Positions 6,601-24,439 of a DNA stretch of 64,000 nucleotides are shown in pieces. Source of the stretch: Candidatus Poribacteria bacterium (GTDB lineage: Bacteria; Poribacteria; WGA-4E; WGA-3G); contig JAPOQK010000023.1 in the NCBI GenBank assembly GCA_026710795.1, forward strand, positions 1,525 through 65,524. The letters run 5' to 3'. Both the position numbers and the translations under genes were made by a program. Under the pieces are notes generated by a model that was not told the origin of the DNA, did not search any database, and saw nothing but the letters and a program-made list of their open reading frames with translations. Within the stretch, counting starts at the first letter, position 1. Each line of letters begins with the position of its first letter.

Positions 6601-9600
6601 AATATTTCCATTGATAACTAATTCCTGTATATTTACAGAATTCTTATTGATAGTAGTAAGAGCTTGGAATTGTTTCAATGTAATCGGTTCAGTCAACATA
6701 CCCAACTTTATGGGATAATTATCAATCGTATGAGCATTGAGATTAATGTTAGTTTCAAGAAAACTACCATTCAAGTTCACTGTTACATCCTGAACACCTT
6801 GAAGGAAAGTTGTATCTCCCAACATAAATTGGTCCAATGCATCTTCAGATAGAGCGTTTTTTACAATATTTGAAAACTGTGCCAAATCAAGATAATCGGA
6901 TATTATATCTATGTTTAGTCTTGACCTATAAAGGTCATTTTGATTGACAGAAACAGTACCACCTACCTGTACAGAATTATCCATTAAATTCAATTTAAAT
7001 GGTTTTATTGACAGAACGTGATTTTGATATGTCAATTGTCCATTTGTATTACTAAAACTAATATCCCCCAATTTAGTATCAACAACTAACGATGGTATTC
7101 TCCAACCTAATTCTACATTAGGATCACTTATCGTACCTGTCCATTTTAATTGATAATAACCACTTCCGGAAATTGGTATATCAAACACTTCACCTAAATG
7201 TGCAAGAACAATATTGTCATCTGAATTTGCTGAGATATCTACCTTCTCATTTTTCAAATTCAAACTACCGTTGAGATTAACGAATGACGTTTTTTCTCCA
7301 ACTACGGTCAGTGAACTATCAGCAATCGTAAGGATGTCATTCTCTAACAACATAAATATAGGCTTTGGATTTGTAAAGTTGACGGTTTTATACTGTAGTT
7401 GAGTATTGTTTATAGTTATTTCAACATCATAAGGATGAATAGGTTTATTGTTAGGATCCACAGAATTTGGCGTTAAATCAGTAAGTGTTCCTTCAACTTT
7501 AACGTTACCATCTGCGGAACCAGAAATGGTTTCAAGCCTTTTATCAAAAATACGGAGAATAGGTGTAACTGATATTCCATCACACTGCAATGTGAATTGA
7601 TAAGGATTATCTTTGATGTTGAAGATTTTTCCGTCAATCCTACCTGTGCCTTCAAATGCTTCACCTGTAAATTTAAAATAATCCAATTCTTCAGTATGTT
7701 TATTTCCCTCTACGAGGGTAGCAAACATAGTAGCATCACCGAGAGGATTTCCATCAAATGTCAAGTCAGAAAAGTCAAAGTCGACTTTAAAAACAAAATC
7801 TTCATTCAATTTCTGATACGAATCAACATGGATATCCAATTTTCCATCAAGCGGAAAGTCAGTTATGTCAGCAGCAAGGGCAACTTCTGCTAATCGAATA
7901 GGTTTGCCAACTTCATTCTTAAGACTAAAATTGAATGCCCCCTCATTCGTAACATGAGCATTAAAAATAACCAGTTGATTCCGTGTAGTAATTTCAAAAT
8001 TTGGAATAGTCAGGGAATAGTCGTCTATTTCAAGAGACATCATCACTGGATCTATATTTATCTCCCATGCATTACCAGATTCAATTGAAAATAGACCTTT
8101 ACCGTCGAGATGATCAATAAGGAACCCATATAAATTTAGTTCACCATTTATCACACCTTGTATAGGAAGTTCTTGCTGAAAAAAGAGTCTATTATAGTCA
8201 GAATCCAGAACAAGTGGGTCTGAAACTATGTTAAATGTTGCGGGTAGTTTATCCGCTAATTTGACATTCCCTTCAATAGAAACCTTTGTTTCTCCAACTT
8301 CACCTTTTTTAACAAGATGTGCATTTTCTATATATACAATTTTATCTGAATACCGAAAATACCCTGTTAATACGCCAAGTGAGATTGGTGTCATAAAGTC
8401 ACCATAAGAAGTTTCAGGGATTTCAACATATCCAGTAGCAGTCCAATCTTTCTTGATCTGTGCGGTAATACTTCCTATTCCTACGAAGGGAACAGTGTTT
8501 ACAATATCGCATATTTTGCCAAAATCAAAATTGTCTATTCTTAATTCAACCTGTTCCAATGAACCATTCATTTCAACAATTGCATCATCCAACATGCCAT
8601 TTACAGTTATTGTTGATCCTATGTTCTCTTCCAAATTAATGTTACAATTCAGAGATGAATCTTTCAATAAAACAGGTTCTGTCTGTCCATTTGCCTGTAA
8701 AGATGATTCTGATAGTTCAATATTACTTTCCAGATGAAATTCTCCTTCTGCGCCACCATTAATCTGTGCTGTTCCGTTCAATATGCCAGATTTAACCTGC
8801 GGTGCATCTTTAGGAATTTCTACTAACATTGATAAAAGAGAATTGAGTTCCATATCTGAAATTTGTAAATTACTTTCATATTTGATCGGATATTTGAAGA
8901 ATTGCTGTAGTCTATCAAAAAGATTACCTTGTATGCTACTATCTAATAAGACTTTTCCATTACCAGACAATGTGCCACCAGCGATATGCATATTGATTTT
9001 TTCTAAAATTACATTCGGTTCACTGTCTAAATTCAAAATAGTATTGATATTTAAATCAGTTATTTCAATCTTCCTTGATTTAAACTCAGAATTATCTGTT
9101 GATGCACCTATGTTGTGTTGGACAGTCAGTGCTTCTGAAGTGACGGTTAGATTACCTTGTAAAGTAGAATCTGTTCCGCTAAAATCCAATGTTACCTTAC
9201 CTACACCTGCAAGTTGAGTTTGTTCATCCAAAAAATATTGCACATCTGCGGCATCAAATGTTATTTGTAAACCTGCATTCCACAGTCCAGTACTCCAGTT
9301 TCTTTTATATTGATTAACAACTATTAAGGAGTTTCCAATTTGTAATTGAAGTGGTTGAAGTTCCTCACTATTCGTAGCTAGTGCAAACTTCACACCATGA
9401 ATCCGTTCAATTGGCATCTCCACACCATTAAGTGTGATGTTACCTTTACCTATAGAGAAACTACCTGAATGATCCCATTTATCTAACTTACCACTTAACT
9501 TAACCTCTATTTCTGGAATACTCACTTCAAATTGCTTTTCCTTATCAACAAAGTATATCTCACCACCATTGACTTTAAAGTTGGATATTGCAAACGCGAA

Positions 9601-10038
9601 ATCATTATCAGATTCTGTTGCAGAATCTGATTCAGGTTTCTGTAACAAATGCATTAGGTTTACCTGTCCATCCGACTGACGAACAACGACAACTTTTGGA
9701 CCTTCAATTTCAAACTCAGTAACAAGGAATTTGCGTCTAAGTAAACCAAGAATGTTGTATCTAAGAATTATCTGTTCTGTTGAGAGGATAGGTAGTTCTG
9801 TGGATTTTGTATCTACTATAGAAAAGTCATCAACGACAACACCTGTGAGGACATTTCCCCGCAATTTTTGTATTTTTACTTCATAATCTTCGTTAATTTG
9901 GTCTTCTAATGCTGTTATTAGACGTTCTCTGATATAATTTTCAAGAAAATAATCTGAACTTATAAAAAAATATCCTCCAATTCCACATAGCAAAATGAAG
10001 AGTGATATTGAAATAAACAGGATTTTGCGTCGTGTCAT
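3664..10038 (-). CDS. Giant TamB/AsmA-family translocation-and-assembly-module protein (2124 aa) with N-terminal membrane anchor
   Basis: N-terminal TM helix (ILFISISLFILLCGIGGYFFI), very long beta-rich repetitive body, C-terminal DUF490-like region. Stop is 2 nt before bamA, so the two are probably co-transcribed. Confidence 0.65.
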   Translation of the reverse strand: MTRRKILFISISLFILLCGIGGYFFISSDYFLENYIRERLITALEDQINEDYEVKIQKLRGNVLTGVVVDDFSIVDTKSTELPILSTEQIILRYNILGLLRRKFLVTEFEIEGPKVVVVRQSDGQVNLMHLLQKPESDSATESDNDFAFAISNFKVNGGEIYFVDKEKQFEVSIPEIEVKLSGKLDKWDHSGSFSIGKGNITLNGVEMPIERIHGVKFALATNSEELQPLQLQIGNSLIVVNQYKRNWSTGLWNAGLQITFDAADVQYFLDEQTQLAGVGKVTLDFSGTDSTLQGNLTVTSEALTVQHNIGASTDNSEFKSRKIEITDLNINTILNLDSEPNVILEKINMHIAGGTLSGNGKVLLDSSIQGNLFDRLQQFFKYPIKYESNLQISDMELNSLLSMLVEIPKDAPQVKSGILNGTAQINGGAEGEFHLESNIELSESSLQANGQTEPVLLKDSSLNCNINLEENIGSTITVNGMLDDAIVEMNGSLEQVELRIDNFDFGKICDIVNTVPFVGIGSITAQIKKDWTATGYVEIPETSYGDFMTPISLGVLTGYFRYSDKIVYIENAHLVKKGEVGETKVSIEGNVKLADKLPATFNIVSDPLVLDSDYNRLFFQQELPIQGVINGELNLYGFLIDHLDGKGLFSIESGNAWEINIDPVMMSLEIDDYSLTIPNFEITTRNQLVIFNAHVTNEGAFNFSLKNEVGKPIRLAEVALAADITDFPLDGKLDIHVDSYQKLNEDFVFKVDFDFSDLTFDGNPLGDATMFATLVEGNKHTEELDYFKFTGEAFEGTGRIDGKIFNIKDNPYQFTLQCDGISVTPILRIFDKRLETISGSADGNVKVEGTLTDLTPNSVDPNNKPIHPYDVEITINNTQLQYKTVNFTNPKPIFMLLENDILTIADSSLTVVGEKTSFVNLNGSLNLKNEKVDISANSDDNIVLAHLGEVFDIPISGSGYYQLKWTGTISDPNVELGWRIPSLVVDTKLGDISFSNTNGQLTYQNHVLSIKPFKLNLMDNSVQVGGTVSVNQNDLYRSRLNIDIISDYLDLAQFSNIVKNALSEDALDQFMLGDTTFLQGVQDVTVNLNGSFLETNINLNAHTIDNYPIKLGMLTEPITLKQFQALTTINKNSVNIQELVINGNIGQGSVQITGETSISTQERDDIMYDFDVSFQKLKVDDFVRFISQDQSFLTGTLGGSVTLKGKGIKSELISAKCKIDEMDLYTQDFHIFNNSRIDFNLENNNVNSHFPIQITSPIIETAVDARIGGTLTSPTVEVLQQGKIKHSQQNEIDMPLELHSNIQYTEKQIKLEIKLTDNENDLTLAGIIPFDMTLSDKKFVERFIDVPTNITLSGNELPLTFFPWLNNVISEVEGVSDINLALTGTLPKLHLQGNVYVHAPHLRNKNIPQIFKNVIIQIQAGKHNNGEDVIELTEFQFDLDEGEVSLLPFQHSQLILDGLTPKRLEINGLKLKEYPLGSLLQQNISSNLIQDIEGTVNATLEKLIIPFESFFENGDRIPLPKISKLLTFDAVSQNSYADLRIDNFSCGFTALGQLFRFVNPSSIPINLNNGEFTVSELKLQNTVANKADESILPMVISSYGRWNMRGKMLLNFKLTNFDLSICDPLFSEANLDTYKLRGLVSTGINITGTYAEPNITVSFEGDNLSLNQAKIDEFNGAINYNSGSKQWLIEESNPLLLKSGGNQLTCSGYIPYLISFSNMQVEPVMDPMEVKCTLTMDELGMLSDIEPTFESVQGDGSVTATIFGTLDEPQLTGIGEFNALSFSIKGSPISISETDVQIELTESQLQIVSIFGELNDGNFFASGYLHSDWFSFNYLDLNVSMDNCSFVEPGQYNATLSTGDNNLHLYGNLDESIQSNLTISGDIIIHSGDYEQNWESVQEWFSGATVSQVELAVGNTILNNLQLDVGIEIPDNIRFISSLGGSTVIKINGSGRLTGLIQEPIFVGDIYLLEGRISTVTQIFEIVPGSSIRNHNPREFNPDLNIILRLPNPIRGVLLEDGGTTDVNVRLTITGTLQNNKPTYISELLNSSTAETLTEAEVLALLLPGNSISRSIGGITFTVSSGFDPEERHIIAIYPLPNNMSIKVEGDEKGDFGVDIQLLERRF

Positions 10039-15895: not shown

Positions 15896-16942
15896 TTATT
15901 CCACATCAATGTGTGCTTCATCTCCTGCGATCACTTCACCAATAACGGAGGCTTCTGGACAATCAGCAGCATGTAGTTCTTTTAAAGCTGCATCAGCATT
16001 TTCAGCTGGAAGGGCAAATAATAGTCCACCAGATGTTTCAGCCTCCATCATAATATGTCGCAACTCTTTCGATACTGTTGAATTAAATGAGACTTTATCC
16101 GCAAGGAACTTTGTATTTGCTGTATAGGCTTGGGTGTATGTATTCTTTGCAACCAAATCGGGAGCATCATCAAAGTAAGGGATAGATGAACTATTAAATC
16201 GTAACCGTATATTATTACCTTCCGCCATTTCAGAGGCATGTCCTAACAACCCATAACCTGTGACATCGGTGCATGCTGATACACCATGTTTTAACATTAC
16301 CTCAGACGCAGATGCATTGAGTCGTGTCATCGATTCAACCAATGTTGGTAGAATTTCATCACTTATTTTATTGAATTTAATTCCCGTTGTAAGTATTCCT
16401 ATACCAAGTTTTTTCGTTAATATAAGGACATCACCAATTCGTGCTCCGAAATTTTTTACATATCTATCAGGATGAACAATGCCTGTTACAGCCAAGCCAT
16501 ACATCAGTTCAGGGGATTCCACTGTATGTCCACCCACAAGTGCAGCACCGGATTCAATTGCTTTTTCTGCTCCACCCCTGACAATATCACCCAGAATCGA
16601 TATTTCAAGATCTTCTTTTGGCCAGCACGTGATATTTAAGGCTGTTTTTGGAATACCACCCATGCTATATACATCGCTGAGTGAATTCGTTGCTGCAATT
16701 GCACCGAATGTATATGGGTCATCAACAATAGGTGTAAAGTAATCAACCGTATTGACAAGTGCAAGGTCATCAGAAATGCGGTATATTCCCGCGTCATCCG
16801 AGGTTTCAGTACCTACAAGTAGATTTGGGTCAGTAGATTTGGGAAGACAGTCTAAAATGTGTGATAGCTCACCCGGAGCCAATTTTGATGCTCAGCCAGC
16901 ACATTTAACTGTTTCTGTAAGGCGAATCTTTTTCTTTTTCAT
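15896..16942 (-). CDS. selD: Selenide, water dikinase SelD, a selenoprotein with in-frame UGA (Sec) at 16894..16892; true gene extends 60 nt upstream of the ORF-track call
   Basis: The track ORF (start 16882, TTG) is preceded in frame by ATG(16942)-AAA-AAG-AAA-AAG-ATT-CGC-CTT-ACA-GAA-ACA-GTT-AAA-TGT-GCT-GGC-TGA-GCA-TCA-AAA-TTG. This reads MKKKKIRLTETVKCAG-U-ASKLAPGELSHIL, which aligns residue-for-residue with E. coli SelD IRLTQYSHGAG-C17-GCKISPKVLETIL. The UGA sits at the catalytic Cys17 position. The rest of the protein is a canonical AIR-synthase-like SelD. Confidence 0.85.
16866..16880 (-). promoter_or_regulatory. Candidate SECIS-like hairpin 12 nt downstream of the selD UGA (GGCUC-CGGGU-GAGCU)
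   Basis: mRNA UGA-GCAUCAAAAUU-GGCUCCGGGUGAGCU: a 5-bp stem (one G-U) with a 5-nt G-rich loop. It begins 12 nt after UGA, the same spacing as the hairpin in the UGSC selenoprotein gene. Small, so low confidence. Confidence 0.3.
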
Positions 16943-18794: not shown

Positions 18795-20248
18795 ATGCAT
18801 AACATTGCTATCGGTGGAATAATGCATGAATCAAACACATTCAATAACACATTAACTGATATTGATGACTTTTCATGTATTCTTGGTGACGATATATTAT
18901 CATTTTGGAAGGATTCACATCATGAGGTAGGTGGATTTGTCCACGGTTTAGAAGTATTGGGTTTCTCTCCATATCCTACGTTAATGGCAGCTGCAACACC
19001 TGCTGGTCCCGTATCTGATTCTGCCTTCGATACACTCACTAATATGTTGATACAACAACTAAAAGCAATTCCAATTTTGGACGGTTTGCTGCTGGCACTA
19101 CATGGTGCAATGGTTGTTGAGAGTTATCCAGATGGTGATGGAGAAGTGTTGCGAAGACTACGAGAAATATATGGACAATCTTTCCCTATAGTTGTAACAC
19201 TTGACCACCATGCGAATGTATCTCAACAAATGGTTGAACTATCAACAGCACTTATTATTTACAAGACAAATCCACATATTGATCAAAAACAACGTGGGAT
19301 ACAAGCAACAGAATTGATGATAAGTATTCTCAAAGAGGAAGTATCACCTACTCAGATACTTGCTAAACCACCAATGATTCTCAATATCCTATATCAGAAC
19401 ACAAGTGCAGAACCTATGTCATCCATAATAAATTTTGCTAATCAAATGGAGAACGATGACAACGTACTTGTTGCTAATGTTGCAGCGGGGTACCCTTATG
19501 CAGATGTTCCAGAGGTAGGTCCATCCTTCGTTGTTGTGACAAACCACGATTCTCATCTTGCCCAGTTAAACGCAGATAAGTTATCAAGTATATTGTGGAA
19601 TACACGTGACAAACTTACGCTTGATTTACCTGATGCTGCCGAAGCAGTCCAACAAGCAATTCATTCTAATGAACAACCTGTGATTCTTGTAGAAATGGGT
19701 GATAACATTGGTGGTGGTTCACCAGGGATAGTACTATCATTCTGACAGAATTGATACGACAGAAAGCATCTGGATTTGTAGTTGTTCTGTATGATCCTAA
19801 TTGTGTTCAAACCTGTATACAGGAAGGTATTAGCAATGAAGTTTCCTTACAGGTTGGTGGAAAAACAGACAAACAACATGGTAAACCTGTTCCAATACAA
19901 GGAACAGTCCGCCTAATTCATGATGGACATTTTATTGAGACAGAACCTCGGCACGGAGGACAGAAGTATCATAATCAAGGTTTGACAGCTGTTGTTGCGA
20001 TAGAAGACGCATTTGTTGTTTTGACAAGTAAACGACAAACCCCATTTAGTCTACAACAACTGCTGAGTCTCGGAATCAACCCAGTTGAAATGCGTATTAT
20101 TGTCGTCAAAGCTGCCATCGCATATCGCGCTGCTTATGAACCAATTGCTGGTAAGATCATTGAGGTAGATACACCTGGGTTGACAGCAGTAAATCCGCAA
20201 CATTTTACATATCAAAATGTGCGAAAACCCCTATTTCCTCTCGATTGA
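18795..20248 (+). pseudogene. MlrC/M81-family metallopeptidase (microcystinase C-like) interrupted by a -1 frameshift at a G-run (19725..19727)
   Basis: ORF 18795..19745 (MHNIAIGGIMHESNTFN…, MlrC N-domain) and ORF 19751..20248 (MlrC C-domain) are consecutive. Reading ccaggg|atagt… in the +2 frame gives PG-DSTIILTELIRQKASGFVVV, continuous with the second ORF. One extra G at 19725..19727 would restore a ~485-aa protein. Confidence 0.65.
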
Positions 20249-20718
20249 TCCCATCTAAACATCTGGGACAACATATATACTTATAGAATTCAATATGCAA
20301 TATGTATATATAACAGACACATTTAATTGTCACGAATCGCATGTATTGAAGCGGTTCCTAAACGCAATTCACACACATTTATTGATGTATTATGGTTTCC
20401 AAACCTAACTAAAAAAGTTTTAGAGTCAATTCCGACTAAAATTGTCATATATAAGCCGTTAATCCTGTTCTGATAAGGGTTTTTAGCACTATACGAAAAA
20501 TGACAATATTATAATTGACTCTAAAAACTCTAAAGTATGACATTTAAAACCTGTTAATTGTCGTCAATATATTGTAGAAACGGATCAATCACTCCTACTT
20601 CAAATCTATTCATATTTCAGATATATAACAATTGATGTCTCTGATATATACAATCAAAATATTTGACTTCAGATTGAGTATGTGTTAACATAACATCAAT
20701 TTATGGAAGGAAGTTATT

Positions 20719-21048
20719 ATGTCTACACAAGAAGAACTATATGATGTCGCGCTTACACATTTTGCTGATAATGAACCTGATAAAGCCGTGAATGCGTTTA
20801 ATGTCCTTATTGAGAAATATCCAGACTATATAGAAGGATATCTGGGACTTGGGCATGCGTATGAAAGATTAGGACAATACGATGAGGCAATTGAAGCTGT
20901 TCAAAAAGCAATTGAAATCAATCCAAATGATCCACTCGCATACACCAGTTTGTCTATCTGTTACCAACGAAAAGGGATGATTCAGGAAGCAGAAGATGCT
21001 ATGGCAAAATCTCAACAGATTCAGTTGGAAACTTCCACCGAATCATAA
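20719..21048 (+). CDS. TPR-repeat protein (109 aa)
   Basis: Three TPR-like repeats (AVNAFNVLIEKYPDYIEGYLGLGHAYERLGQYDEAIEAVQKAIEINPND…). Confidence 0.6.
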   Translation: MSTQEELYDVALTHFADNEPDKAVNAFNVLIEKYPDYIEGYLGLGHAYERLGQYDEAIEAVQKAIEINPNDPLAYTSLSICYQRKGMIQEAEDAMAKSQQIQLETSTES

Positions 21049-21058
21049 TTGGAGATTG

Positions 21059-21592
21059 ATGACTATGGAAAATATCACATTACTTGATCCCACCTCTCAA
21101 GGTGAAACGACTGAGAAATATCTTGCTCCACGACTTGAGAAATTAGATGGAAAAGTCATGGGAATTCTGGATATTACAAAGAATGGTAGCGATATATTCC
21201 TTGACCGTGTTGAAGAATTGTTCTGTGACCGATTTGAGATATCCGAAGTTGTCCGTATAAAGAAACCGACATTTGCACGACCAGCACCAACCGAACTACT
21301 CGTGGATCTTGCAGAACGCGTTGATTTTGTCATTGAAGGACTTGCTGACTGAGGTTCCTGTATATCGTGCAGTATGCACGATGGATCAGTTTTAGAGGAA
21401 ATGGGTGTTCCGAGTATAGCAATATGTTCAGAGGTGTTTTTCTCTGCAGGAAAAGTTCAGGCACGTGTTCTTGGATATAATGATTTAGAACCTCTCACCG
21501 TTGTCCATCCCATCCAAAGTCTTACTTCAAAACAGATACAAGAACGTGCTGACAGTGTTGTTGATAAAATCATAGAACGCCTGATAAAATAA
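21059..21592 (+). CDS. UGSC-motif selenoprotein: single gene spanning two ORF-track calls joined by in-frame UGA at 21350..21352
   Basis: ORFs 20996..21352 and 21374..21592 are in the same frame and separated only by TGA: …VIEGLAD-U-GSCISCSMHDGSVLEEMGV…. The UGA is followed by GGT TCC TGT, giving an exact U-G-S-C motif (the motif after which the 'UGSC family (seleno)protein' is named). Likely start is ATG 21059 (MTMENITLL) with GGAG 5 nt upstream. Confidence 0.6.
21364..21382 (+). promoter_or_regulatory. SECIS-like hairpin (AUCGUGC-AGUAU-GCACGAU) starting 12 nt after the UGA of the UGSC selenoprotein gene
   Basis: Perfect 7-bp stem with 5-nt loop inside the coding sequence. Spacing from UGA matches the bacterial SECIS arrangement and the selD hairpin in this window. 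Confidence 0.4.
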
Positions 21593-21602
21593 TATAAAAA
21601 TA

Positions 21603-21665
21603 GCAGGTACACTTGTGTATTCTGAGAATAATTCGAAGTATACCTGCTACTGTTTATATTATACC
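21603..21665. terminator. Bidirectional intrinsic terminator (nested hairpin flanked by U-tracts on both strands)
   Basis: AGCAGGTAcAC…(tattcTGAgaata)…GTATACCTGCT followed by ACTGTTTATATTAT on + and preceded by TAAAAATA (U-run on -). Lies 11 nt after the stop of the UGSC gene. Confidence 0.5.
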
Positions 21666-21722
21666 AATTCTAATATTTATTGTCCCATTACTGGATTCAA
21701 CCATTGTTATTGATTGGAAATC

Positions 21723-21812
21723 TTTCTTCTGTAGGATCGACCCGGTGAATGCCTAAATGGCATTCATACCGTTGATTTGCTGGTCGCGACCGGGAGGTCG
21801 CTCCTACAAGTA
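21723..21812. repeat. MITE-like intergenic repeat element with imperfect terminal inverted repeats (cTGTAGGAtCGACC … GGtCGCTCCTACAAG) and internal hairpin GAATGCC-taaat-GGCATTC
   Basis: Termini are inverted copies of each other. The internal GAATGCC…GGCATTCATACCGTTGATTT core recurs at 53000..53100. The terminal motif cTTCgTAGG…CCTACAAG recurs at 26687..26775. Also contains the perfect palindrome GGTCGCGACC. Confidence 0.45.
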
Positions 21813-21850
21813 GTCCTCAGCAAATGGCACTTTATTTATTAGAAATGATA

Positions 21851-24439
21851 TTATTTACGAGTTTGTTTGAAAAGAAATTGACCTTCCTTGAACTCAACTT
21901 CCACATCATCACCCTCATGGAAGTTACCTTCAAGTATATCAATCGCCAATGGATTGAGAATATCTCGTTGCAGTGTGCGACGAAGTGGACGCGCACCATA
22001 CACTGGATCAAAACCACGATTTACTAATTCCTCTGTCGCTGAATTAGTTAACGTAAGAGTCATATCCATTTCAGCAAATCGAACACTCAGTTTGGATAGT
22101 TCAAGTGTTACAATCTGTTTCAATTCCTCAATACCGAGACGGTCAAAAATAATCATATCATCCACTCTGTTCAGAAATTCAGGTGGGAAATGGGATTGTA
22201 AAGCATCCATTACCTTTCGACGAATTTCTTCAGTGGCGAGATTTGATTCACTTATCCATTGACTACCAATATTAGATGTCATGATGACAACCGTATTCTT
22301 AAAGTCAACAGTACGTCCTTGTCCATCAGTCATTCTACCGTCATCAAGCATTTGGAGTAACACATTAAATACTTCTGGATGTGCTTTCTCTACCTCGTCA
22401 AGAAGAATAACACAGTACGGGTGTCTCCTGACTGCTTCAGTCAGTTGTCCTCCTTCATCAAATCCAACATAACCCGGAGGTGCACCGATAAGTCTGGAAA
22501 CGGTATGTTTCTCCATGTATTCACTCATATCAATACGGACTATGGCGTTAACATCATCAAACAGGAATTCTGCAAGCGATTTTGCCAGATGTGTTTTCCC
22601 AACACCCGTAGGACCCATAAATAGGAATGAACCAAGTGGACGTTCTGGATCACCGAGACCTACACGTGAACGACGTATAGCGTTTGAGACTGCAGAAACC
22701 GCTTCATCCTGTCCAATTACCTGTTCACATAAACGTTCTTCCATGTGAAGTAGTTTCTGTGTTTCACCTTCCATAAGTCGATATACTGGAATACCTGTCC
22801 ATTTTGCGACTATTTCAGCAATATCCTCCGCGCTGACACGTTCTCTCAACATGTGAGTGCCGTTGCTGACTTCTTCTAACGCATCACGCAGAGAATTCAG
22901 TTGTGCTTCAAGTTCAGGTATTTTACCATATTCAAGTTCTGATGCTTTCGCTAAGTCACCACTACGTTTTGCTTGTTCGGATTCTGTGCGGAGCACTTCA
23001 ACCTGTTCCATCAATTCGCGTATCTGTTTTAGGTTCGTTTTCTCATTTTTCCAATTTGCTTTGAGTACATTTGCTTTCTCTTGTAATTCAGCAAGATCAA
23101 GATTCAATTTGTCTAAACGTTGTTTTGAGGCATCATCGTCCTCTTTTTCCAAAGCCTGTTGCTCAATATGAAGCTGGATTATTCGTCGTTCTACTTCGTC
23201 AATTACCTCAGGAACACTATCAATTTCAATGCGTAAACGAGATGCTGCTTCGTCAACTAAATCTACTGCTTTATCCGGTAGAAAACGATCCGAAATATAA
23301 CGTTTTGATAGAGTTGCTGCAGAGACAATGGCATTGTCCTGAATTTGAACACCATGATGTGTTTCATACTTTTCCTTCAAACCACGTAGTATAGCAATAG
23401 TATCTTCTACTGACGGTTCGTGGACCTGGACAGGTTGGAATCTGCGTTCAAGTGCTGCATCTTTCTCAATATGTTTTCGGTATTCATCCAAAGTTGTGGC
23501 ACCGATACACCGCAATTCTCCGCGTGCCAACGCTGGTTTTAACATATTAGATGCATCCACTGATCCTTCAGCAGCACCTGCCCCTACGATGGTATGAAGT
23601 TCGTCAATAAAAAGAACTACCTCACCTTCTGCTTGTTCAACATCAGCGAGAACGGCTTTGAGTCTATCCTCAAACTCGCCGCGATATTTACTTCCTGCAA
23701 CAAGTGCTCCCAAATCAAGCGCAATAAGTCGTTTCTCGCGTAGGCTTTCTGGCACATCACCATCTGCAATCCTCTGAGCTAATCCCTCAACAATTGCTGT
23801 TTTACCGACACCAGGTTCTCCAATCAGCACAGGATTGTTTTTTCGTCTACGTGATAGAACTTGCATTACACGACGTATTTCATCATCCCTACCAATAACT
23901 GGATCAAGTTTGCCGGACATTGCCTCTTGAGTGAGTTCTCTACCAAATCTTGTGAGTGCTTGGTATTTATCTTCAGGATTCTGATCTGTTACACGTTGTG
24001 TTCCGCGTATGTCAATAAGTGCCTTTAGGATATTATCCTTCGTTACTCCTACCTCGCATAGTATTTGTCCCACATCGCTCTGTTTTGAATCCGAACATGC
24101 TATCAAAAGATGTTCTGTGCTTACATATTCATCTTTCAGTGTGTTTGCCTCTTTAAGTGCCGCTTCAAGAATTGATTGTAATGAACCTGAAACGCGAAGG
24201 TCTGAACTGTCTCCTTGAACTTTTGGTGATTTCTGTATTTTCTCCTCAAGGGCAGTTACTATTCCTTGAATATCTGCTCCTAATTTCTGCAAAATTGGGG
24301 TTACAATCCCATCCGTTTGTCTGATGAGTGATAGCATAAGATGCTCAACACTCATTTCTGGATTTTGATATTCACTTGCTAAAACTTGTGCTGTTTGTAG
24401 TGCTTCTTGTGCTTTAATTGTAAATCTGTCTAATCTCAT
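21851..24439 (-). CDS. clpB: ATP-dependent chaperone ClpB
   Basis: 862 aa; Clp N-domain repeats, two AAA+ modules ([15 protein letters not shown]…; [15 protein letters not shown]…), long coiled-coil M-domain between them. Confidence 0.95.

Follow-up and report, generated by a model that had tools for sequence, protein, structure and literature searches.

The closest described system is the UGSC family ('UGSC-containing protein', Zhang & Gladyshev 2007/2008). It was reported as a functionally uncharacterised selenoprotein in 2007 (PMC1976440), ranked fifth by selenoprotein sequence count among prokaryotic families in Table 2 of the 2008 survey of Global Ocean Sampling (GOS) ocean metagenomes, with 255 selenocysteine (Sec) forms versus 21 Cys-forms (PMC2398784), and is included under the profile NF041046 in a 2026 review (PMC13188914). 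UGSC is described as a selenoprotein family in all three papers (PMC1976440, PMC2398784, PMC13188914), and the family name is in routine RefSeq use, haloarchaeal plasmids included; a gene of this kind is therefore already known. Here, we analyze a UGSC-family gene in a 64-kb stretch of contig JAPOQK010000023.1 (hereafter, the window), which belongs to a metagenome-assembled genome (MAG) of Candidatus Poribacteria, a sponge-associated bacterium. Two further systems serve for comparison. In Escherichia coli, the recoding rule for the Sec insertion sequence (SECIS) specifies a 17-nt upper stem–loop (nt 15–31) placed 11 nt from the UGA, in which U17, G23, and U24 are critical (PMC8659212). In the selenoprotein B subunits GrdB, GrdF, and GrdH, the residues from Sec onward form a UxxCxxC motif (PMC6778437, PMC13188914).

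A single reading frame across an in-frame UGA

The gene occupies one frame of 177 codons on the forward strand, from an ATG at 21059 to a TAA at 21593–21595, and its sole interruption is a TGA at 21350–21352. The initial annotation, made from the sequence of the window, had described two open reading frames (ORFs; 20996..21352 and 21374..21592) that share a frame and are parted by this TGA, with the UGA falling in a U-G-S-C context on readthrough. Both points are borne out by the sequence: the readthrough translation is ...DFVIEGLAD-U-GSCISCSMHDGSV..., which places D-U-G-S-C at the family columns that follow the third β strand. The same split gene is found at ~90% identity on a TARA scaffold (L001), with its TGA, its frame, and the half beyond the TGA all kept. 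Because this relative retains a start codon (GTG) at the codon of ATG 21059 and has ATT at the codon of the window's second ATG, the start at 21059 is supported. A homologue from other metagenomes, at 44–46% identity, likewise has TGA at the same column, with the frame and the downstream half conserved.

With U written as C, the readthrough protein scored 150.6 bits against NF041046 'UGSC family (seleno)protein', covering profile positions 2–146 of 147 and passing the curated cut-off of 125 bits, and 160.8 bits against Pfam PF24696, for which the cut-off is 25 bits. The separate halves reached 52.7 and 63.2 bits on NF041046, each matching its own half of the profile only. Like other family members, the window protein is single-domain and about 180 residues long. 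In the public record, the gene appears as two 'hypothetical protein' entries, MCY4401796.1 and MCY4401797.1, which correspond to the exact halves and stand beside the ClpB entry MCY4401798.1; both belong to the Candidatus Poribacteria MAG. These two entries are one selenoprotein, wrongly split, and represent a family member unannotated as UGSC.

A word-indexed protein search returned four matches, all ending at the UGA. An exhaustive search with the C-terminal half as query yielded 220 representatives, of which 150 were listed; the UGSC hidden Markov model (HMM) matched 148 of these 150. Two of the top matches of that search, P0008 and P0010, were rejected as repeat-protein false positives. 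Among the 148, 87 are C-terminal pieces that start just past the U column and 41 span it. The scenario in which homologues end at the UGA and are followed by a separate downstream gene is excluded, because the apparent termination is a gene-caller artefact, the 87 pieces being C-terminal halves of Sec-forms that gene callers had cut. In 36 aligned full-length sequences, Asp97, Cys98 (the U position), Gly99, and Cys101 are each present in at least 90%, so homologues do carry Cys where the window gene has UGA.

Sec-forms were collected by scanning species-representative genomes with a DNA pattern encoding D-U-G-[ST]-C-x-[ST]-C-x-x-H-D, which gave at least 120 matches. The hosts include Acidobacteriota, Alpha-, Beta-, and Gammaproteobacteria, Acidimicrobiia, Dehalococcoidia, Myxococcota, Poribacteria, and others, and all 125 pattern-selected genomic Sec-type sequences passed the UGSC HMM on readthrough. 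One contig labelled as a Nitrosopumilus sp. MAG, and hence as archaeal (L077, 4500–4535), carries a Sec-form UGSC with a bacterial in-ORF hairpin; its hairpin region is near-identical to that of a Myxococcales contig (L051), and the contig is probably mis-binned.

The hairpin downstream of the UGA

The initial annotation had also noted a hairpin at 21364..21382, shortly 3′ of the UGA. The hairpin is present and folds slightly larger, at 21363–21383. Its stem pairs 21364–21371 with 21375–21382, and the additional U·G pair joins 21363 and 21383; the spacer from the UGA to the stem is exactly 11 nt. Counting the U of the UGA as nt 1, the GUA loop (G21372, U21373, A21374) corresponds to nt 23–25.

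A hairpin of the SECIS type is conserved in register across the Sec-forms, and the window hairpin matches those of 117 other Sec-forms. Among the 117 unique Sec-form genes, the pairs C17–G31, G18–Y30, U19–A29, G20–C28, and C21–G27 form in 100%, A22–U26 is paired in 85%, and G23 and U24 are invariant. Codon usage is correspondingly narrow: codon 6 is TCG or ACG in 114 genes and TCA in the other three, and in all 117 genes codon 7 is TGC, codon 8 is AGT or TGT, and codon 9 ends in G. Because the stem overlaps codons of a conserved peptide, a control from Cys-form genes was needed. For this we used 77 unique Cys-form UGSC genes encoding the same amino-acid motif, obtained from a metagenome scan in which 106 of 120 pattern matches passed the HMM. 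The wobble-dependent pairs +18/+30 and +21/+27, formed in 100% of Sec-forms, are present in 51% and 49% of Cys-forms, respectively; AGT never occurs at codon 8 in Cys-forms, and codon 9 ends in G in 47% of them. Sec-form hairpins are also more stable, with a median energy of −10.6 kcal/mol versus −4.0 kcal/mol for Cys-forms, at a comparable median locus G+C content (64% and 62%). These comparisons of sequence indicate RNA-level selection on the hairpin, specific to TGA-bearing genes.

A gene on a Paracoccus ferrooxidans plasmid, which lies outside the DNA pattern, has UGG at codon 7 and GUC at codon 9, so that C21–G27 is replaced by G21–C27, a compensatory change. It accompanies a Cys-to-Trp substitution at codon 7. 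This Sec-form UGSC (L250, 3995–4564; plasmid pFER4, CP038202.1) is again annotated as two hypothetical proteins.

The UGSC hairpin was compared with the SECIS of E. coli fdhF, taken from NC_000913. Both lie within the ORF after an 11-nt spacer, expose G23 and U24 in the apical loop, and have the 3′ arm U26-G27-C28-A29 in common. They differ in that the UGSC loop consists of three bases (GUN, closed by A22–U26) versus GGUC in fdhF, and in that the UGSC hairpin has neither the bulged U17 nor the extended lower stem.

Partner gene, predicted fold, and proposed mechanism

Examination of 231 UGSC loci showed that a thioredoxin-fusion protein of ~480 residues is encoded on the same strand as UGSC in 192 of them, upstream of it in 191. 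This neighbour is typical of the family, although the curated family definition does not include it. Among the 94 loci having enough flanking sequence, this partner is missing from only seven, and the window locus and three Poribacteria-type relatives are among these 'orphan' loci. The earlier statement that the function and redox partner of the family are unknown therefore stands in part: the literature gives no function, while a conserved neighbour exists in 192 of 231 loci, though not here. In Bradyrhizobiaceae SG-6C, the gene order is trxB (TIGR01292, 378 bits), partner, UGSC (with a 4-bp overlap), and TctC; in Methylobacterium brachythecii, the genes for an SDF transporter, the partner, and UGSC are transcribed divergently from trxB and a GntR-type regulator gene. 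CaiB-type CoA-transferase, TctC, enoyl-CoA hydratase, thiolase, and acyl-CoA ligase genes are further recurrent neighbours. In P0092, a Cys-form UGSC domain and the partner core are naturally fused in one protein, which may be the 'UGSC/Unknown_1 fusion' of the GOS paper. On haloarchaeal and Paracoccus plasmids, UGSC is followed by the partner core without its thioredoxin domain; pFER4 of P. ferrooxidans has this core downstream of UGSC. A sequence search of the Protein Data Bank (PDB) with the partner profile returned thioredoxins only. Collectively, the family neighbourhoods suggest, by inference, a reductase that receives reducing power from thioredoxin reductase and thioredoxin and whose substrate is a small carboxylate-type compound.

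Genes of the Sec machinery are sometimes close by: selB in nine Sec-form loci and selA in six are located no more than a few kb from the partner–UGSC pair; the loci concerned include L061 (4534–6231, reverse strand), L007 (2–1153, forward strand), and 13 more, for example in Acidimicrobiia-type MAGs. This proximity suggests that UGSC is a principal client of the Sec machinery in those loci.

For the fold, an AlphaFold2 model was built of the Cys-form homologue P0017 from a 35-sequence alignment (pLDDT 93.4, pTM 0.85). It consists of five β–α units, with the Cys matching U98 at the N-terminus of the third helix, and we infer from it that the window protein has a one-domain, Rossmann-like α/β fold that would not be thioredoxin-like. 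A PDB sequence search with the UGSC profile gave no match, and a Foldseek search of the P0017-based model against the PDB gave weak generic α/β matches, with no thioredoxin fold among those listed.

Similarity to selenoprotein B was detected when the 36 members were scanned singly against NCBIfam. GrdB (TIGR01917) was weakly matched by 20 of the 36, with a best E-value of 2.6e-5; weak matches were also found to GrdF (12 members), TIGR01918 (10), PrdB (8), and GrdH (6). The selenoprotein B matches are confined to the Sec region, at about positions 325–405 of 431. Where the alignments are gapless, the UGSC Cys comes to lie at positions 347–350 of the GrdB-type profiles, and the Sec of GrdB, which we take to lie near residue 350, would fall in the same place; a literature search for this position gave no result. 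The window motif U-G-S-C-I-S-C fits the U-x-x-C-x-x-C that is common to selenoprotein B (GrdB/GrdF/GrdH and PrdB; TIGR01917, TIGR01918, NF040794, NF040795, TIGR04483; Pfam GRDB), and some UGSC operons resemble grd operons in including a thioredoxin domain and thioredoxin reductase. In contrast to GrdB, UGSC lacks the ~320-residue N-terminal part, and none of grdA, grdE, and prdA was found in the window or recurs beside UGSC in the 231 loci. The hosts also differ: selenoprotein B is found in amino-acid-fermenting anaerobes, whereas UGSC hosts include Bradyrhizobiaceae, Methylobacterium, Acidimicrobiia, and SAR116, whose described members are largely aerobic. Given the weak matches in the Sec region and the common U-x-x-C-x-x-C motif, UGSC is probably, at most, a distant stand-alone relative of the selenoprotein B Sec domain. 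It does not belong to GrdB/PrdB, because its scores are far below the family cut-offs, the N-terminal GrdB part is missing, and grdA, grdE, and prdA are not nearby.

Based on these findings, we consider it very probable that 21059–21595 is a single gene for a 177-residue UGSC selenoprotein, that its UGA is recoded, and that it works as follows. The UGA at 21350–21352 would be read as selenocysteine in translation. The in-ORF hairpin 11 nt downstream, with G23 and U24 in its apical loop, would be expected to recruit SelB with Sec-tRNA(Sec), by analogy with fdhF. In the predicted fold, Sec98 would lie at the N-terminal end of the third helix, forming U-x-x-C-x-x-C with Cys101 and, in this protein, also Cys104. 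Its chemistry would most likely be that of the Sec-bearing domain of the glycine/sarcosine/betaine/D-proline reductase selenoprotein B: the selenolate would act as nucleophile or reductant and form a selenenyl-sulfide with Cys101, which the thioredoxin system would re-reduce. In most genomes, this reducing route appears to be encoded next door by the thioredoxin-domain fusion protein and sometimes trxB; the gene is alone in the window lineage, and its reductant and substrate-binding partner would therefore be encoded elsewhere or be general.

Several observations weigh against this reading. Taken alone, the window hairpin is only modestly unusual (z = −2.24, with 6 of 200 shuffles folding equally well), so the case for it rests on the cross-genome comparison, and an Rfam scan of the whole window found no SECIS or other family. 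ARAGORN found no tRNA in the 64-kb window, and hence no tRNA-Sec, and selA and selB were not found among the window ORFs scanned; because none of the three is there, the Sec machinery is attested in the window by a Sec-containing selD only. The redox route is affected as well. Neither tblastn nor the partner HMM found the partner anywhere in the 64 kb, trxB was not found in the window, and the nearest relatives (L001, together with L096 and L068 at 64% identity, L068 being a Poribacteria chromosome) also have neither gene; the family-level route may therefore not apply in the window lineage. The structural model is that of a Cys homologue 38% identical to the window protein rather than of the protein itself. 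As for the link to selenoprotein B, GrdB/PrdB scores are far under the family cut-offs (14–23 bits versus 65–800; for TIGR01917, with a cut-off of 602, 13.8 bits for the window protein and 23.3 for the best family member), the exact alignment of the UGSC Sec with that of GrdB leans on profile coordinates and on the assumed Sec position, and Cys104, which supplies the second C-x-x-C spacing, is not conserved across the UGSC family.

Alternatively, the TGA might genuinely end translation or be a lesion, in which case the locus would hold a pseudogene or, as publicly annotated, two small genes independent of each other. This alternative has its points: GenBank lists two hypothetical proteins, the ATG at 21374 could start the second ORF, and the neighbouring MlrC-like gene does have a frameshift. 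We nevertheless regard it as highly improbable, in that a single curated profile covers both halves, the Cys-forms are single ORFs, TGA stands at the same column in 125 genomes from many phyla, the family's most conserved motif (GSCxSC) is encoded by the 21 nt from the TGA to that ATG, and the hairpin appears to be under RNA-level selection specific to TGA-bearing genes. With the UGA read as Sec, the function could be construed in other ways. In the literature view, UGSC is a generic thioredoxin-fold thiol/selenol oxidoreductase, in which U-x-x-C would act in a thioredoxin-like manner on protein disulfides or peroxides. The position of UxxC at a helix N-terminus in the model does resemble CxxC redox centres, and UGSC shares with the thioredoxin-fold selenoproteins (Trx-like, Prx-like, SelW-like) its small size, a Cys three residues after the Sec, and a presumed redox function. 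The predicted fold is, however, a parallel β–α Rossmann-like sandwich that does not follow the β-α-β-α-β-β-α topology of thioredoxin, and we consider this view unlikely. Slightly less likely still is that the protein is a module for binding a metal or cluster, with Sec98, Cys101, and the conserved His150 serving as ligands of a metal or an Fe–S-type cofactor, as in the Rossmann-like McrC/Mmp7.

Tentative, and short of an even chance, is the broader idea that UGSC is the Sec-bearing small subunit of a widespread uncharacterised reductase driven by thioredoxin reductase and thioredoxin. Such an enzyme would comprise trxB, a fusion of a thioredoxin domain with a ~350-residue core whose fold is unknown, and UGSC; genes for TctC or another carboxylate transporter and for CoA metabolism would often be located nearby. 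It would be kin of the glycine/proline reductase selenoprotein B of anaerobes, working in lineages of which the described members are largely aerobic, and the Poribacteria gene would be a derived 'orphan' uncoupled from its partner.

Surrounding features and significance

The features of the window discussed here are collected in the table below.

Table. Coordinates of the UGSC-family gene, its recoding elements, and nearby features in the window
Feature	Position	Strand	Remarks
UGSC-family selenoprotein gene	21059..21595	+	177 codons including predicted Sec98, then TAA; matches NF041046 and PF24696
Ribosome-binding site GGAG	21051..21054	+	4 nt 5′ of the ATG; read from the sequence
UGA, predicted to be decoded as selenocysteine (residue 98)	21350..21352	+	Motif U-G-S-C-I-S-C; Cys column in homologues
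SECIS-type hairpin in coding sequence	21363..21383	+	By folding: eight Watson–Crick pairs plus one U·G pair
Tetratricopeptide repeat (TPR) protein gene, 109 aa	20719..21048	+	Pfam TPR matches; 10 nt from the UGSC start
Strong hairpin past the stop codon, possible terminator	21601..21649	+	Fold of 21590–21670: −23.2 kcal/mol, z = −5.0
selD (selenophosphate synthetase), itself a predicted selenoprotein	15896..16942	−	TGA 16892–16894 = residue 17
Candidate selD SECIS hairpin	16865..16881	−	nt 14–30 from the U of the UGA; loop CGGGU

The presence of a second selenoprotein gene, selD, some 4.5 kb away had been proposed from the outset and is borne out: its TGA lies 4.46 kb from that of the UGSC gene and corresponds to predicted Sec17. 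The readthrough product scored 360.7 bits against TIGR00476, matching from profile position 1, and on NF002098 its residues 1–345 correspond to profile positions 1–342 of 347. The candidate hairpin downstream of the selD UGA has a weak local fold of −6.4 kcal/mol, is conserved in L001, and carries G23 and U24 in its loop, as far from the UGA as they are in the UGSC hairpin and in E. coli fdhF. An unconstrained minimum-free-energy fold of the 61-nt selD region did not select it, so we grade its role as the selD SECIS as tentative. Judged by its sequence, the genome is probably that of a Sec-decoding Poribacteria lineage.

The TPR gene and the UGSC gene are probably co-transcribed in the window. 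The initial annotation had the UGSC gene following a TPR protein gene with a GGAG ribosome-binding site, and this arrangement is real here; the adjacency is interrupted in L001, where an IS605-type OrfB/TnpB gene (Cas12f-like TNB domain; 8798–9874), not found in the window, lies exactly between the two. Because of this insertion, the TPR–UGSC adjacency is not a constrained operon, and we do not regard the TPR gene as a functional partner. The clean intrinsic terminator proposed downstream stood up less well: the hairpin past the stop codon is strong, but its U tract is weak and a consensus terminator scan did not call it. The sole terminator-like site from that scan of 20500–21900 is the SECIS hairpin at 21363–21383, followed by GAUCAGUUUU inside the ORF.

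Also near UGSC in the window are clpB, which is convergent, and an MlrC-like peptidase gene that carries a frameshift. The latter, an M81 metallopeptidase gene (Pfam DUF1485 and MlrC_C) at 18795–20248 on the forward strand, is split into two ORFs by a break near 19722–19725. Where L001 has an intact 484-aa gene, the window gene has lost one base in a G run (CCAGGGGAT to CCAGGGAT), which reflects either a homopolymer assembly error or recent pseudogene formation. It was rejected as the ~480-aa partner, as it belongs to a different family.

Comparison with curated profiles and homologues confirms the initial observation and supports its reading as a UGSC-family selenoprotein gene, a correct but ordinary assignment, both the family and the recoding signal being known in kind. 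It departs from the family in lacking the typical thioredoxin-fusion neighbour and in a public record not annotated as UGSC. The practical outcome for the window is a corrected annotation, in which two hypothetical proteins become one selenoprotein. At the level of the family, the non-thioredoxin fold, the weak link to GrdB/PrdB, and the near-obligate thioredoxin-domain neighbour are testable leads, all computational. The non-thioredoxin fold, the GrdB/PrdB link, the adjacency of the partner and trxB, and the codon freezing were not found stated in the UGSC literature searched, although the fusion may have been recorded before, as 'UGSC/Unknown_1' in the GOS paper. Because the SECIS fits the E. 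coli rules for the spacer, G23, and U24, UGSC might be directly expressible in E. coli. The trxB operons of Bradyrhizobiaceae and Methylobacterium lie in sequenced genomes, where genetics may be possible.
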